Source of the DNA: an uncultured Verrucomicrobiae bacterium
GTDB lineage: Bacteria; Verrucomicrobiota; Verrucomicrobiia; Limisphaerales; Palsa-1400
DNA length: 64,000 nt
Direction: 5' to 3'
NCBI GenBank assembly: GCA_963707025.1
Contig: CAVPOM010000005.1
Location: 128,001 to 192,000, forward strand
Part shown: in pieces, positions 9,001-27,000 of the stretch
How positions within the stretch are numbered: the stretch's first letter is position 1
Layout of the letters: every line of letters starts with the position of its first letter
Made by a program: the position numbers

Positions 9001-12000
9001 CGGCCTACTGGTCCATATCACCACCGGCAACGGCTGCTCAGACACGAGGCCGATTGCGGGTGGGCTTTGACCACGATGCTGAATACCTGGGTTTCTTCGG
9101 AAAAAATTTGTTTTCGCTCGTCAGCGCTGCGCCGCCCGAACTGGCGCATTGCAGAAGCATGCAGGAATTTAAAACGAAAACGCTGGTTGCGTTGCTGGCC
9201 GATGAAAACCTGCGGCTTAATTTCGATTTGGAGCCCGACATTTTTGACGACCCTTCTTGAAGGTTTTACGACACAGCCTGAAGGAATTCTGGAACGTCTA
9301 AGCCGGATTGGGCGCAGTGGGGCGCACCGGCGCGCGAAATTCCTTCGACACATTTTGCGTGAAAGCGGCCGACAAACCTCCTTTGAAAAGGTGTGGCCAA
9401 AGCTACAGGTTATCAGTTGTTGGACTCACGGCCCTAGCGAATTATATGCCGAAAATCTTCGGAGCCAGTTTCCCAATGTCGAGATTCAGGGCAAGGGATT
9501 GGTCGCCACGGAAGCCTTCGTCTCGCTGCCGTTTCACGAGGACAAGGATCCGGTGTTGGCTGTCACTTCCCACTTCTTTGAATTTCAGGATGCGGCTGGC
9601 GAAAAATTTTCTTTGGCGCACGAACTCATTGCCGGAAAAACCTACCGCGTCATCGTCACCACCGGCGGCGGTTTATATCGCTATCCGCTGGGCGACTTGG
9701 TTCGGGTCACGGGTTTTATTCAAGACGCGCCATGCCTGCGTTTTATTGGACGTGAAGCCAATGTTTCCGATCTGTTTGGTGAAAAACTGCAAGGGACATT
9801 CGTCGAAGGCGTCATTCGCCGCGCGCTCGCGCAACAAAACATCAACCCCCGTTTTTTCCTTCTCGCTCCGGTTGCAGGGGCCATGCCGAAGCCGGCCTAC
9901 ACACTGTTTCTGGAGGCCAATGCAGTCCTGGACGCCGTCGTTCTCCAAAGAAATCTGGAGGAGGGATTGGCGGAGAATTTCCACTACAAGCACTGCCGCC
10001 GTTTGGGACAACTTTCCGGGGCCAGAATCTTTCAGATCAACCGGGGATCGCCGTCCTCCGAGACAGTCTTCCAGCGCGAAATGTTGTCCCGCGGCATCAA
10101 GCTCGGAGACATCAAGATGGGCGCTCTCGATTGCCAGTCAGGTTGGGAACAACGCTTCAGTGGACAATTTGTTTCTTAACCCATCATAGGCGCTGATGCG
10201 GCGGAGCTTCAACGGGGCCGCGCCCGCGCGGGCGCGGAATGCTCTCTTGCAGCCTTTGACACCGTGCTATTGACGCCGCGCTTCAACGGGGCCGCGCCCG
10301 CGCGGGCGCGGAATGCCTTCGCATTGGGAAAATCCCAGTTCAGTATGTTATTGCTTCAACGGGGCCGCGCCCGCGCGGGCGCGGAATGGCCCTCTGCGGC
10401 GTCCAGCCGCAGAGGGCCTTGTTTTGCTTCAACGGGGCCGCGCCCGCGCGGGCGCGGAATGCCAAGTCGCCCCGTTGTTCGCAATCTCGACAAGCTCTTG
10501 CTTCAACGGGGCCGCGCCCGCGCGGGCGCGGAATGGTGGATCGTCAACCCAGCCGCGCTTATGGGCGCTTCGCTTCAACGGGGCCGCGCCCGCGCGGGCG
10601 CGGAATGACCGTTATTCCCTAGCAGCCTGTCGGACTTAGGCGGGAGAATAAATTGACGGAGTTTGAATTGACTGGCGGTTTGAGCAGTCAATGCAAGGCA
10701 TGCCTGCGCGATTCGTCACCATTGATTACGATACGCCCCTGCTTTTGCCTCCGAACCTGCGCGACTGGGTGCCGGTGGGTCACTTGGCCCACTTCATCCT
10801 GGACGTAGTCGAGGAGTTGGATTTGCGTCAGGTTCGGGTCAACGAGCGGGGCACTGGGAGTGAGCAGTATCCGCCGCCGATGCTGTTGGCGCTGTTGCTC
10901 TACTGCTATGCCACCGGGGTATTTAGCTCGCGGCGTATTGAGCAAGCCACTTTGGACAGCGTGCCGGTGCGGATGATCTGCGGGGATACGCATCCGGACC
11001 ACGACACGATTTGCACGTTTCGGCGGGAGAACAAGGCCTTGGTGCAGGAGAGCTTCGTGCGCGTGTTGGAACTGGCCCAAGCGTTGAAGTTTCTGCAGGT
11101 GGGCCAGATCACCGTGGCGGTGGATGGGACCAAGGTGCTGGCCAACGCCAGCAAGCACGCGGCGGTCAGTTATGAGCATGCGGGCAAGACGATCCAGCAG
11201 TTGGAATTAGAGGTCAAAGAACTGCTGGCCAAAGCGGAGCAGGCCGACAGCACGCCGCTGGAAGAGGGGTTGACGATTCCGCAAGAAGTGCAACGGCGGC
11301 AAGAGCGCAAGGCCAAGCTGGCGGCGGCGCGGGCCGAGATTGAAGCGCGGGTCAAAGCCCGAGCAGCGGCGGAGATGGCCGAATACCAGGCCAAATTGGC
11401 CGAAAGGGAGGCCCAAAAAGACCGGGGAGAGAAGCCGCGCGGCCCTGAACCCAAGGCCCCCAGCTCAGAGCCCAAGCCTTCCGAGCAGTATAACTTTACC
11501 GACCCGCAGAGCCGGATCATGAAGGCGGGCAACGGCCAGCATTTTGAACAGAGTTACAATGCGCAGGCGGCCGTGGAGGTGGATAGCCGGTTGATTGTGG
11601 GCCAGCGGGTCAGCCAAGCGCCCAACGATAAACAGGAGTTGGTTCCCACCCTGAAGACCATTGCCTCACCGGTGGAGTCGGTGGCCGCGGTATTGACCGA
11701 CAGCGGATTTTACAGCGAAGCGGCGGTCCAGGCCGTGGAACGAACAGGCGAAGCTCAGCCTACTGGCACGATTGTCTATGCGGCAGTCGAGAAAAAGGAG
11801 CACCATCGCACCGTGGGCGATCTGGAGCGAAAGCCGGAGTCCGACGCACCGGGGCCGCAGGCCAGCACCAGCGAGGTGATGAAACACCGGCTGCGCACGG
11901 CGCAGGGTCGAGCCAGATACAAATTGCGGCAGCAGACGGTGGAACCGGTGTTTGGGATCATCAAGAGCGTCTTGGGCTTTCGACAGTTCCTGTTGCGAGG

Positions 12001-24000: not shown

Positions 24001-27000
24001 CTTTCCCGACGCTTGGTCGAGGACCTTGCGCACTCGGTTGGCTTGGTCAGAATCACCATAATCAACTTGCATATTTTGTTCTCTCCTCTCTGTATCTGGG
24101 TTGGTCAATGTTTCGAAAAACAAAATTGTGCGAAACAAATCTGCGAGACGAAACTGCCACGCCTTGCCTGCCCGATAGTCGTCCTGAACCCATCGCATAC
24201 CGACTTGAAGCAGCCGACGGGTCGAAAACTCCCGCAGTTCCAAGGCTGCCCGTGTGGCGGCCAAGAAATCGTTATCAAAATTGCTGCCTCCATGGGCGGC
24301 TGGGAATACGTTGCGGAGAGAACCGAAGGTGAATTGGCCGTTCGCGAATGAACCCGGGCTTGATGCATTGAGCCATGGATGGCGATCCACGCGGCTTTTG
24401 GCTTCAAATAGCTCTCGGAACCGAGTCGGCAAAAGCCCGGAGACATATAACGCAGGACGGAACGACTGTGGATCCGGTTGATAAAACAGCAAGTCCACTT
24501 GCAGTAGATTCTTCTCTTGCGACACAACGTAAAACAACTCGTCCTCGGCCGCGGTCAACCGTGCCTGTGCAGTCTTGTTGATCCGCGCATTTATCAGACG
24601 GTCCAAGAACTGGTACGCCATCGTTGGCGTAGGCAGTACAGGTGATGGCAAGAGCAGATACTTGAAACCGTAGTAATCAAAATTCAACTCTTTCTTCACG
24701 CGCTCCCCTGCGAAATCCACTTTGTCGCAGCATTCCCTACAGGCTGGGAAGTTGCGCCAAGCCCCGGATGGATCAAACCCGCCTGACACCGAGCCTGGCT
24801 TGTCCAACGTGTAGAGCTTGAATTGCTGGATTTGCAGTAGGCCCGAAACTTCCGTGTTCGTCTTCCCGCAGATACTGCATTGCCCAATTCCCTGCACTGC
24901 GCCCTTGATGCCCTTCTTCGTTGTCGCGGACTCCTTCCCGGACCGCACCAAGGACTGCTGAAACGTGTCGAAGTCGCCGACGTGTCTTAACGGCTCCTTT
25001 TCTTCCTGCCACGCAACCGAAATAATTGCGGGTTGGGAAACAATCGATTTCTTTTTCGCCACAGGGGGGTTGTACCGTTGGATCTGATCGCGTAGCGCCA
25101 CACGCTTTGCCGTGCTTGATTCGTCATTTGCATTTGCCGAATCCAACCACTCTCGAATCTTTCCAAGCGTCTTGGTCTCTGGTCCAGGGAGATTTACGCC
25201 TCTATCAACCGCATCCCGAATGCTTTCCGACAAACGGACCAGTTTCTTTCTGATTTCCTCTAATAGTGCTGCTTGATACTTCGCGTCGGTATCTCCTTTT
25301 GCGGCCCGCAATCCGGATGTTGGCGTCGCATCCCAACCGTTCGGCGGCCCTTCCCGGTAGAGGTAGGCTCGGCGTTTAACTGGATCGCATTCCTCGACCT
25401 GAATCCGCTGGAAGCCTTTGCCGGAGAAAATCAACAGGAGCACAGTTTTTGTCCGGAATTTCGCCACCGGGTCACGCATATATTGCGCAACCGGGTCGCC
25501 AGCCCCTTTTCCGAGTCCTTCCCGATCCCGGTAAAACGCCCCGAGTTCGGCAAACTGATGGATCATCTTGACCGCCTCCCTTTCTCAGCACACACAATAA
25601 GCCTTCGTTGGCAGCCGAGTTGCTCATGGCCTGTCGCGCCATCGAAAAAACGGTCGAAGCCCGGCGAGTTCATCGCTCACCGCCTTCCCCGACTTCACTC
25701 TCAAGATGTCCGATCCTGAATTGCATGAAATCACCTTATTCGCGCCAAAGTGGGACCCGCATTGGGTCATTTCCCGGCGTGGTTTTATCCTTGTATCAGA
25801 ACGACTTGCGGAATGCGAGCATAAAAATGACGGTTTGCAGCATTATTCAAGAGACGCTGATTTGCCGCACGGTTCATGCATCATTCCAGAGGTGGCGCTT
25901 GCCGTTCTTGGCCACAAGTTTCAAAATCAGCGCACGGTGCAAAACACAGCCACACCACTGCCGGAGAGCCTTTCGGGGCTGATCGAGCGCGTCACGTTTT
26001 TCGACGAGGACGGCGGATTCGGTGTGCTCAAGGTCAAAGCCCAGGGGCACCGTGACCTGGTGACCGTGGTCGGCTCCCTGCCGTCCGTCAGCGCCGGGGA
26101 ATGGCTCACGGCCCAGGGCCGCTGGGTTCAGGACCGGGAATATGGGCAGCAGTTCCGGGCCGAGATGCTGACCAGCACGCCGCCGACCAGCAAGGAAGGC
26201 ATCGAGAAATACCTGGGCAGCGGCATGGTTAAGGGCATCGGGCCCGTTTACGCCAAGAAGCTCGTGGACAGATTTGGCGAGGGTGTTTTTGACATTATTG
26301 AGAAGGCGTCTGCCCGCCTGGAGGAGGTGGACGGTATCGGCCCAAAGCGCCGGAAACGAATCAAAGCGGCCTGGGACGAACAAAAGGTCGTCCGGGACAT
26401 CATGCTTTTCCTCCACTCCAACGGCGTCAGCACCAGCCGGGCCGTGCGCATTTACAGGACGTATGGCGAGGCCGCCATTGAGAAGGTCCGCAACGACCCG
26501 TACCGACTGGCCAAGGACATTCACGGCATTGGTTTCAAGACTGCCGACCAAATTGCGCGGAAGGTAGGCATCCCGGTAGATTCGCTGGTCCGCGCCTGCG
26601 CCGGATTAAACCACGTTTTGCTGGAGGCAACCGGTGACGGCCATTGTGCCCTGCCGGTGGAACTGCTCAAGGACAAGGCCGGAAAGCTCCTGTTGGTGGA
26701 GGAGAAGATCGTGGCCGACGCTTTGGAGCGCACGGTGGCCAGCAACGATCTGGTCAAGGAAACGATCAACGGGCAGGAGTTGGTTTTCCTGCCGCACCTG
26801 AAACGGGCGGAGGAAATAGTCGCGGACAGGATCAGGAGTCTCGCCAGATCGCCTTCATCCTTCCCACCAATTGACTTCGAGAAGGCGGTCGTGTGGTGTC
26901 AGCAGAAAACCGGCAAGGAGCTTGCCCCAAGCCAGCGGGATGCGCTCAAGCTGGCCCTGACGAGTCGAGCCTTGGTCATTACGGGCGGGCCGGGGACTGG

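Follow-up and report, generated by a model that had tools for sequence, protein, structure and literature searches.

A type I CRISPR-Cas locus of an uncultured Verrucomicrobiae bacterium with I-B interference genes, a predicted stand-alone Csb2-like Cas6 and I-G-type adaptation genes

Introduction

Can a type I CRISPR-Cas locus in which no cas6 gene is recognized process its own crRNAs, or does it rely on a second locus of the same genome? The question is raised by two type I loci of an uncultured Verrucomicrobiae bacterium: C5, which lies in the 64,000-nt stretch of DNA analysed here (the window) and is the locus studied, and C4. The survey's finding held that C5 is a I-G locus whose effector was swapped for a I-B cassette, and that it depends on C4 for crRNA cleavage. 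We find that C5 is, with high probability, a complete and self-sufficient mixed type I system, in which I-B interference is joined to processing and adaptation of the I-G kind and the breaks in the genes are likely consensus errors.

Results

C5 combines genes of two subtypes

The features of the C5 locus and its surroundings are listed in Table 1. Its gene content cas8b-cas7-cas5-cas3, described earlier as I-B-like, was borne out by profile matches. The signature protein of subtype I-B, Cas8b, matched PF09484 (Cas_TM1802) over its full length with 281 bits (cut-off 25.1) and the PADLOC Cas8b model with E 2e-83; on TIGR02556 it reached 132.9 bits, under the curated cut-off of 156.95. The Cas7 pieces matched TIGR02590 (E 2e-40, 3e-18 and 1e-7). 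Cas5 matched I-B models only (PADLOC Cas5b, E 1e-30; TIGR02592, 49 and thus below the curated cut-off of 97), and the best model for Cas3 was Cas3b (E 1.5e-153). C5 accordingly has the Cas7, Cas5 and HD-helicase Cas3 of a I-B system. Instead of a Cas6/Cas6b-family Cas6 it encodes a Cas6 of the Csb2 family, and instead of separate cas4 and cas1 genes a single fused Cas4g/Cas1g ORF (NF049935, 700 bits vs. a cut-off of 560).

C5 has this fusion in common with subtype I-G, and also a repeat of 36 nt that ends in TTGAAGC; the I-G repeat type is given as "36 bp, tail TTGAAGC" in PMC11237760. Other I-G features are absent from C5: its proteins gave no match to TIGR04113 or TIGR02570, so that neither Cas8g (Csx17 or Csb3) nor Cas7g (Csb1) was found, only the Cas6 half of the Cas5-Cas6 fusion Csb2 is present, and the HD domain of Cas3 lies at residues 18-117 and not at the C-terminal end as in Cas3g (residues 639-782 in C4). 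Judged from sequence, C5 joins interference genes of subtype I-B to processing and adaptation genes of the I-G type in a conserved, chimeric arrangement.

Table 1. Features of the C5 locus and its surroundings in window coordinates
Feature	Position	Strand	Evidence
Distal CRISPR array part, 6 repeats, separated from the remainder by the IS	10206..10607	-	
IS1182-family element within a spacer; transposase 10691-12217, perfect 20-bp terminal inverted repeats	10617..12295	+	NF033551 and junction sequences
Leader-proximal array part, 24 repeats of 36 nt	12316..14011	-	
cas2	14216..14506	-	TIGR01573; 98% identity with C4 copy
cas4g/cas1g fusion, true start codon uncertain	14510..16642	-	NF049935; 85% identity with C4 copy
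471-aa protein, ~8 Myb/SANT-like helix-turn-helix repeats	16646..18061	-	
158-aa protein, unknown family	18058..18534	-	
Small DUF6429 gene, ~81 aa after removing extra base at 18566/7	18541..18787	-	
cas6, stand-alone homologue of the Csb2 C-terminal Cas6 domain, ~253 aa	18798..19560	-	
cas3, N-terminal HD domain and helicase, I-B type	19542..21854	-	
cas5, I-B type, 238 aa after removing extra base at 22354	21829..22546	-	
cas7, Csh2 type, ~355 aa after removing extra bases at 22831 and 23046	22548..23617	-	
cas8b, TM1802 family, subtype I-B signature gene	23635..25566	-	
recD2, first gene of the flank common to the C4 locus (homology to 31651)	25706..28123	+	
Tyrosine integrase of the island bearing C5	43724..45088	-	
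tRNA-Ala(CGC)	49845..49923	-	

The repeats of the two loci, previously called the same, are both 36 nt long and near-identical, with consensus sequences that agree at 35/36 positions: in the transcribed direction the C5 repeat ends in GAAGC in 29 of 30 units, and that of C4 in GAAGT in 32 of 36. The counts of 6 repeats in the distal part of C5 and 36 in C4 stand, and the leader-proximal part has 24 rather than 23. The two C5 stretches of repeats listed earlier are parts of a single array of 30 repeats, interrupted inside a spacer by an IS1182-family element (transposase NF033551, 321 bits vs. a cut-off of 270); the insertion may have silenced the six distal spacers. In the folded C5 repeat transcript an 8-bp stem capped by a 4-nt loop has 4 nt on either side, and the 8-nt tail GTTGAAGC follows.

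The gap downstream of cas3 holds a cas6 gene

Neither cas6 nor csb2 had been recognized in C5, apart from what was described as a Csb2 remnant in a 1-kb gap. This gap (19560..18798, minus strand) holds a full-length gene whose product is homologous to the Cas6 domain of Csb2. The start of the gene overlaps the cas3 stop, and one surplus base at 19264 interrupts its reading frame in this assembly. A two-frame translation of the gap can be aligned with the C4 Csb2 over residues 268-543, at an identity of 27-56%. All five intact orthologues that were scanned matched TIGR02165 above its cut-off, at model positions 210-491 only, and matches to the PADLOC Cas56g models fell on the C-terminal halves of those models. 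Orthologous ORFs encode 250-334 aa, and the N-terminal, Cas5-like half of Csb2 is absent. The stand-alone Cas6 has the two-RRM Cas6 fold with a C-terminal glycine-rich loop; its best structural match is Cas6b (4z7k), at TM-scores vs. Cas6 structures that are modest (0.40-0.53). Searches of the whole genome with TIGR01877 and PF01881 gave no match to any other Cas6 family, while the controls were detected.

Some Cas6-like RAMPs are inactive, and the stand-alone protein could accordingly be an RNA-binding Cascade subunit without nuclease, with processing left to Cas5, as in I-C, or to a host RNase. We consider this very unlikely. I-B Cas5 proteins are not known to be catalytic, and it is I-B models alone that the C5 Cas5 resembles. 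One His of the glycine-rich loop, G-H-S-x-H-F-G-L-G, is invariant in 29/29 stand-alone Cas6 sequences, and the window Cas6 has both His residues. The homologous Csb2 domain, moreover, is an active stand-alone nuclease (PMC9638904; bioRxiv 10.1101/2022.08.19.504415). The isolated C-terminal domain of Csb2 cleaves the repeat 4 nt 3′ of the hairpin to leave an 8-nt handle, and H503 is essential (PMC9638904); the C5 repeat fold has exactly this geometry. By motif position, and not by alignment, the invariant His would correspond to H503 of Thioalkalivibrio sulfidiphilus and H520 of Bifidobacterium animalis, and repeat cleavage by the catalytic His of the stand-alone Cas6 is predicted from the homologous domain.

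The frame breaks are most likely assembly errors

The split of cas7 reported earlier was confirmed and is due to two extra bases (23046 and 22831); breaks in cas5 (22354) and in the DUF6429 gene (18566/7) had been missed. Removal of these bases and the one in cas6 opens the frames of all four genes. All five are missing from every independent contig covering the sites. In four public runs from four studies, all covering contigs were one base shorter at 19264, 22354, 22831 and 23046, the last of these covered in three of the four runs. Metagenome contigs L080 (99.7% identical to the window) and L078 (96.6%) also lack the extra bases; L078 is readable at the four sites inside cas genes, the sequence around 18566/7 being replaced there.

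Five frameshifts within 4.5 kb of the assembly consensus, together with an IS in the array, would also be expected if C5 were truly decaying in this strain through real mutations, with only the I-G system of C4 active. This is improbable: each of the five is a one-base insertion found in the window alone, whereas substitutions relative to L080 number just 12 in 5.8 kb, and L078, although 3.4% diverged, does not have the four extra bases inside the cas genes. The assembly may contain other frame errors too, to judge from overlapping ORF pairs elsewhere in the window and within the C4 NRPS gene. Both the ratio of indels to substitutions and their direction are better explained by consensus errors than by mutation, and we take the five breaks to be most likely errors of this kind. 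Between L080 and L078 the dN/dS of cas6 was 0.25 (35 synonymous and 31 non-synonymous differences); by this measure the gene is under purifying selection.

The cas6 gene is conserved with the I-B cassette

The order cas8b-cas7-cas5-cas3-cas6, with cas6 directly after cas3, was found in all six close genome relatives (genome loci with a Cas8b identity of at least 45%). Close stand-alone cas6 forms were present in 14/80 metagenome loci, and a I-B cas3 abuts the gene in each of the 12 that include upstream DNA. The adaptation genes and arrays captured with these relatives are Cas4/Cas1 fusions and repeats ending in ATTGAAGC: the fusion occurs in L004, L005 and L007 (the L004 copy, the one compared with family model NF049935, scored 738 bits), such repeats in L005 and L007 and near L004, and Cas4/1 or Cas2 adjoins the stand-alone cas6 in L083-L086 and L090.

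These data bear on the proposed two-locus division of labour, in which C5 would have no working Cas6 and its pre-crRNA would be cut by the Csb2 of C4. With a single base separating the two repeats, cleavage of C5 transcripts by Csb2 is plausible; the cas6 frame is broken in this assembly, and full-length Csb2 is encoded elsewhere in three of the five other module-bearing genomes searched. Against this stand the position of cas6 after cas3 in 6/6 genome and 12/12 metagenome loci, the intact gene in six independent data sets near-identical to the window, the purifying selection on it, and a 3.5-Mb genome (G063) that carries the module with the stand-alone form only and in which full Csb2 was not found. 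Division of labour has very little chance of being correct. Because the cassette has its own conserved cas6, the Csb2 of C4 is not needed. Cross-use of crRNAs between C5 and C4 is possible, given that the canonical I-G system of the same genome has nearly the same repeat, but it is not necessary.

C5 and C4 as paralogous slots

C4 proved to be the complete I-G locus it was said to be, with Cas3g, Cas8g/Csx17, Cas7g, Csb2, Cas4g/Cas1g and Cas2. The adaptation proteins of the two loci are indeed more than 80% identical (Cas4g/Cas1g 85%, Cas2 98%); the DNA is ~80% identical from the array to window position 16513, and the common recD2 flank is 81-93% identical over window positions 25599-31651. 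These comparisons support C5 and C4 as paralogous "slots" with homologous flanks (array-cas2-cas4/1 on one side, recD2 and four genes on the other) and different interference cassettes. As similar cassettes are paired with Cas4g/Cas1g and repeats ending in ATTGAAGC in other genomes, a swap from I-G to I-B is not needed to explain C5. Nor is the gene in the gap what remains of a I-G locus like C4, given its 27-56% identity to Csb2 vs. 85% for Cas4/1.

Both additional ORFs noted in the survey's finding, of 158 and 471 aa, exist. They make up a cassette of two genes that is not confined to CRISPR loci and recurs in another genus in a non-CRISPR context (89% and 74% identity), and the DUF6429 gene has many other contexts in peat metagenomes. 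We regard all three as passengers that were inserted between cas6 and cas4/1.

The 3′ 52 bp of tRNA-Ala (49845-49896) are repeated exactly at C5:107337-107388, outside the window. These perfect direct repeats enclose 70.5 kb including the integrase and are likely the ends of an island; C5 sits on this ~70-kb island, integrated at tRNA-Ala. Of the claim that both loci lie on related integrative elements, the part on C5 alone is shown; no tRNA was found in the 100 kb around C4 and no tyrosine integrase near it.

Discussion

C5 would operate with two sets of components: I-B-kind interference proteins (TM1802-family Cas8b, Cas7, Cas5 and a Cas3 with N-terminal HD) and an I-G-kind set of stand-alone Cas6, Cas4g/Cas1g fusion, Cas2 and the 36-nt repeat with its GTTGAAGC tail. 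By analogy with the characterised Cas6 domain of Csb2, the stand-alone Cas6 would bind the repeat hairpin and, through its invariant glycine-loop His, cut 4 nt 3′ of the stem, leaving an 8-nt 5′ handle. Cas5, Cas7 and Cas8b would then assemble on the crRNA as in I-B Cascade, and Cas3 would presumably degrade the target.

More tentatively, and with the odds rather against it, C5 might represent a stable undescribed chimeric subtype that shares a crRNA and spacer pool with the coexisting I-G system. The I-B interference genes would then be driven by a front end made up of the stand-alone Cas6, the Cas4g/Cas1g fusion and the TTGAAGC repeat, and both Cascade/Cas3 machines would draw on one pool (repeats agreeing at 35/36 positions, leaders and adaptation genes alike). 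A single acquired spacer would arm two unrelated effectors, which may differ in PAM requirements and anti-CRISPR sensitivity, and the unfused Cas6 would mark either the state before the Csb2 fusion or a fission of Csb2.

Among known systems, the C5 Cas6 is homologous to the C-terminal domain (TIGR02165 positions 210-491) of type I-G Csb2 as characterised in T. sulfidiphilus (PMC9638904) and B. animalis (bioRxiv 10.1101/2022.08.19.504415). They are alike in the glycine-rich loop with its conserved His, in Cas6b 4z7k as best structural match, and in repeat geometry, with hairpin, 4 nt and an 8-nt handle ending in GAAGC. Csb2, however, has 500-570 aa, includes the Cas5 function and is encoded after cas7g, whereas C5 has only the Cas6 half, of about 250 aa, encoded after cas3 in a Cas8b cassette, and a separate I-B-type Cas5.

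In Pyrococcus furiosus a common repeat type and a common Cas6 serve several effectors of the same genome. Two type I effectors with practically one repeat are likewise found here, but C5 and C4 each appear to have their own Cas6 as well as adaptation genes, so that sharing is possible and not required.

Canonical I-B loci encode Cas6b, usually upstream of cas8b, while C5 has a Csb2-lineage Cas6 downstream of cas3, a fused Cas4g/Cas1g and an I-G-type repeat. C5 resembles them (Synechocystis I-B Cascade, PMC11096372; Haloferax) in Cas8b, Csh2-type Cas7, Cas5b and HD-helicase Cas3 and in the order cas8b-cas7-cas5-cas3. The myxobacterial MxI-B (I-MYXAN) system (PMC11237760) is also I-B-like with a Cas4-Cas1 fusion, and like C5 joins a I-B effector to a non-standard adaptation module. 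MxI-B has Cas8a1 or Cas8b3, an upstream Cas6 and a Cas1 on its own branch; C5 differs in all of these, and its Cas4/1 exceeds the cut-off of the I-G model NF049935.

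Organization of the C5 locus

The CRISPR locus C5 combines a cas8b-cas7-cas5-cas3 cassette with adaptation genes and repeats on the same strand; the window covers C5:128001-192000. One spacer is interrupted by an IS1182-family element, whose 20-bp terminal inverted repeats are perfect, so the blocks of 24 and 6 repeats represent a single array of 30 repeats cut in two. The transposase of this element is present in a single copy in the assembly (tblastn).

Features of the C5 locus and its surroundings (window positions)
Feature	Position	Strand	Remark
cas8b	25566..23635	-	
cas7	23617..22548	-	
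cas5	22546..21829	-	
cas3	21854..19542	-	
cas6 (predicted)	19560..18798	-	the 'gap'
DUF6429 gene	18787..18541	-	small gene
158-aa ORF	18534..18058	-	
471-aa protein gene	18061..16646	-	helix-turn-helix repeats
cas4g/cas1g	16642..14510	-	
cas2	14506..14216	-	
leader			between cas2 and the 24-repeat array
CRISPR array	14011..12316	-	24 repeats
IS1182-family element	10617-12295		transposase on + strand
CRISPR array	10607..10206	-	further 6 repeats
tyrosine integrase	43724-45088		
tRNA-Ala(CGC)	49848-49923		

A predicted Cas6 encoded behind cas3

According to the survey's finding, the C5 effector lacks a Cas6, and its crRNAs would be cut by Csb2, the Cas5-Cas6 fusion of the type I-G locus C4 in the same genome. 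Comparison of the C4 Csb2 with the window by tblastn gave two collinear matches in different frames, with residues 268-357 at 19515..19267 and residues 508-543 at 18926..18819. Three-frame translation of the gap of about 1 kb behind cas3 revealed an uninterrupted protein whose frame shifts once, near 19264, and which starts at an ATG overlapping the cas3 stop and ends with the glycine-rich loop G-H-S-C-H-F-G-L-G-Q-F. Its identity with the C4 Csb2 reaches just 27-56%, while the neighbouring Cas4/1 and Cas2 proteins of the two loci show 85-98%, and its origin as a leftover of a C4-like Csb2 gene was ruled out on these grounds.

TIGR02165 (Csb2) was matched above its curated cut-off by all five scanned orthologues, at model positions 210-491 only, and the PADLOC Cas56g models were matched on the C-terminal halves. 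A whole-library HMMER search retrieved 1031 homologues, led by 8 short proteins (158-254 aa, with about 250 aa in five cases); many Csb2 proteins of 465-530 aa, in which the C-terminal half is matched, rank below them. For the orthologue from genome relative L006 an AlphaFold2 model, built with an alignment of 29 stand-alone sequences, reached a pLDDT of 89.4 and a pTM of 0.87. One histidine of the loop is invariant in 29/29 stand-alone proteins and, by its position in the motif, would correspond to H503 of the T. sulfidiphilus Csb2. The RNA of the window repeat folds into 4 nt, an 8-bp stem with a 4-nt loop, and 4 nt followed by GTTGAAGC, which matches the published geometry of Csb2 substrates. 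No classical Cas6 family was found in the genome, and a profile search of PDB sequences with the stand-alone protein returned nothing significant (best E 0.63). From these comparisons, the gap protein is a predicted Cas6.

Single-base insertions and intact copies

Window 18500-25600 was compared with contigs assembled from four public runs, each belonging to a different study. Every covering contig had one base fewer at 19264 (cas6), 22354 (cas5), and 22831 and 23046 (cas7), with one run uncovered at 23046; in DUF6429, most contigs of the four runs had one base fewer at 18566 or 18569. In metagenome contigs of another collection, L080 is 99.7% identical to the window over 5.8 kb, its sole gaps being the five extra bases, and L078 is 96.6% identical and free of the four that fall within cas genes. 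Removal of the five bases by script restored open reading frames for DUF6429, for cas5 (238 aa, N-terminus typical), and for cas7 and cas6, which count 362 and 271 codons from their first starts; from its ATG, cas6 has 253.

The terminal branch of the window sequence carries five insertions vs. 12 substitutions, and we infer that consensus errors fit the five insertions far better than mutation does. The Cas6-less appearance thus most likely came from single-base errors in a long-read-style assembly: the gap holds a full cas6 with one extra base at 19264, intact in independent contigs, and the notion of an effector devoid of Cas6 does not hold. Same-strand pairs of long ORFs overlapping in different frames, comprising radical-SAM, ABC-transporter and NRPS genes, also occur at window 1168-2789, 5584-7858 and 53495-55763 and at L001:1123-4534 in the C4 region, and look like further single-base frame errors of the assembly.

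The intact natural variants of cas6 in L080 and L078 differ by 35 synonymous and 31 non-synonymous changes (dN/dS 0.25). DNA identity between these two contigs is 91.3% in cas6 vs. 98.1-99.6% in cas7, cas5 and cas3, a mosaic pattern that suggests recombination at the cas6 end of the cassette.

Conservation of the cassette

Database searches with Cas8b yielded 70 relatives of 44-99% identity. The protein was not found in 60 relatives of this genome, and the comparison therefore drew on distant carriers. In the genome collection 51 Cas8b loci were found; six, from MAGs of Planctomycetota, Acidobacteria and Bryobacterales, are close at 45-66% identity, and the others belong to classical I-B (23-29%). 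In each of the six, a gene for a 250-334-aa homologue of the gap protein comes immediately after cas8b-cas7-cas5-cas3, the L004 copy being frameshifted and the L005 copy seen by family scan only.

Scanning of metagenome contigs with the stand-alone family (a narrow alignment) left 80 loci. Close stand-alone forms account for 14 of these, and I-B cas3 abuts the gene in 12/12 with upstream DNA. Full-length Csb2 in I-G loci makes up 44 and genes cut by a contig end 13. The other nine loci have complete ORFs of 268-370 aa; the three examined are extra stand-alone copies right behind full-length Csb2 in Csb3-type I-G. In these (L112:7296-9813, L113:5672-8256 and L143:5864-8198), a Csb2 of 502-521 aa is directly followed by a stand-alone Cas6-domain paralogue of 303-345 aa, so free-standing Csb2-type Cas6 genes are not limited to the I-B cassette.

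With an own cas6 after cas3 in 6/6 genome and 12/12 metagenome loci, the proposal that an I-G Csb2 serves the I-B effector in trans loses its basis, and an obligatory division of labour between the two loci can be dropped as a false lead. Extra partial stand-alone cas6 copies were seen downstream of the cassette in two other genomes (L006:16790-17134 and 20637-21185; G061:C18:341148-341847), and in G061 the copy adjoins an array with 122 or more repeats. Viral contigs contained no relative of the Cas8b clade, and plasmids yielded only classical I-B of 24% identity; a phage or plasmid vehicle is therefore not supported.

Genes between cas6 and cas4/1

The genes for the 158-aa and 471-aa proteins recur as a pair in another genus (L076:9126-11034), with 89% and 74% identity. 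Their DNA match covers exactly window 16630-18538 at 81% identity, marking a discrete cassette, and the pair is surrounded in L076 by glycosyl-hydrolase-like and DUF genes without cas genes. The 471-aa protein contains about eight Myb/SANT-like repeats, and its relatives are scattered over 19/41 related genomes. Neither PADLOC nor the protein atlas gave a function for the two proteins.

In peat metagenomes, the DUF6429 stretch (window 18500-18860) has 4-10x the depth of its cas-gene neighbours. Contigs leave the window sequence at about 18801-18856, one run skips 18534-18729, and DUF6429 is partly missing in L078. By these patterns DUF6429 appears to be a small gene moving between contexts, and the genes between cas6 and cas4/1 are probably passengers. 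The I-G locus of T. sulfidiphilus has five unrelated genes at the same position (PMC9638904).

Genomic setting and relation to the C4 locus

The 3′ 52 bp of the tRNA region (window 49845-49896) recur without a mismatch at C5:107337-107388, a site that has no tRNA gene, and the genome contains no third copy. They bound a 70.5-kb segment, likely an integrated genomic island, which holds the whole CRISPR locus together with recD2, a 2224-aa M12B-like protease (32205-38879) and a DUF499 fragment. The view that both loci lie on related integrative elements is thus supported for C5 only, by its 52-bp repeats and integrase; for C4, a search of C4:546000-646000 gave no tRNA, and no tyrosine integrase was seen close to the locus. 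A lone, slightly degenerate CRISPR repeat lies at C5:109490-109525, outside the window and some 2 kb inward from the distal end of the island, near a 0.9-kb segment 94% identical to C4:628742-629652.

The C4 locus is a textbook I-G system with Cas3g, Cas8g/Csx17, Cas7g, Csb2, Cas4g/Cas1g, Cas2 and 36 repeats. The near-identical repeats, similar adaptation genes and common recD2 flank described for the two loci were borne out. DNA identity is about 80% from the array and leader through the cas2-cas4/1 region, up to window 16513, and 81-93% on the recD2 side (window 25599-31651); protein identity is 85% for Cas4/1 and 98% for Cas2. A single base, the last one to be transcribed, distinguishes the two repeats, and the arrays have no spacer in common, just three chance GC-rich 12-mers. 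As judged by a Cas4/1 identity of 85% vs. about 40% to other cassette carriers, the adaptation module and array of C5 were evidently exchanged or homogenised with those of C4. In a six-sequence Cas4/1 tree, I-B-associated and I-G-associated fusions were intermixed (L004 pairs with an I-G copy at 100/99), so neither the swapped module nor the direction of exchange was assigned.

The module and a full-length Csb2 share a genome in 4/6 cases including this one, vs. full-length Csb2 in 15/60 relatives of this genome; the groups are not comparable and the numbers too small to be evidence of coupling. Cross-use of crRNAs between the loci is a reasonable possibility, and as a natural effector pair with one repeat type C5 and C4 are suited to probing crRNA sharing.

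A probable chimeric type I system

The cassette Cas5 matches I-B Cas5 models only and not the N-terminal half of Csb2. We therefore regard C5 as a chimera of modules and reject a merely unfused I-G system. Cas4/Cas1 fusions accompany the cassette in L004 (NF049935, 738 bits), L005 and L007, and Cas4/1 or Cas2 adjoins the stand-alone gene in metagenome loci L083-L086 and L090. Repeats of cassette relatives are 36-37 nt long and end in ATTGAAGC, a type that PMC11237760 gives for I-G. The I-G-type parts of this mixture thus appear native to the cassette family. Altogether, C5 very probably represents a conserved and complete type I system of chimeric make-up, with a Cas6 that an assembly error concealed.

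No description of a stand-alone Csb2-type Cas6 in I-B loci was found in the searchable literature; the 2020 classification review, outside that scope, may cover such variants. The label 'Csb2' is carried in IMG by 3/5 of the 250-aa clusters, and since databases use this name for the proteins, such loci will be typed automatically as I-B/I-G hybrids or as I-B without Cas6. For classification, the Csb2 Cas6 domain also exists as a free-standing gene, predicted to serve an I-B-type Cascade in a conserved family of Planctomycetota, Acidobacteriota and peat metagenomes. As an example, the locus shows the repeat, Cas6 and adaptation genes travelling together and able to couple to different interference modules.
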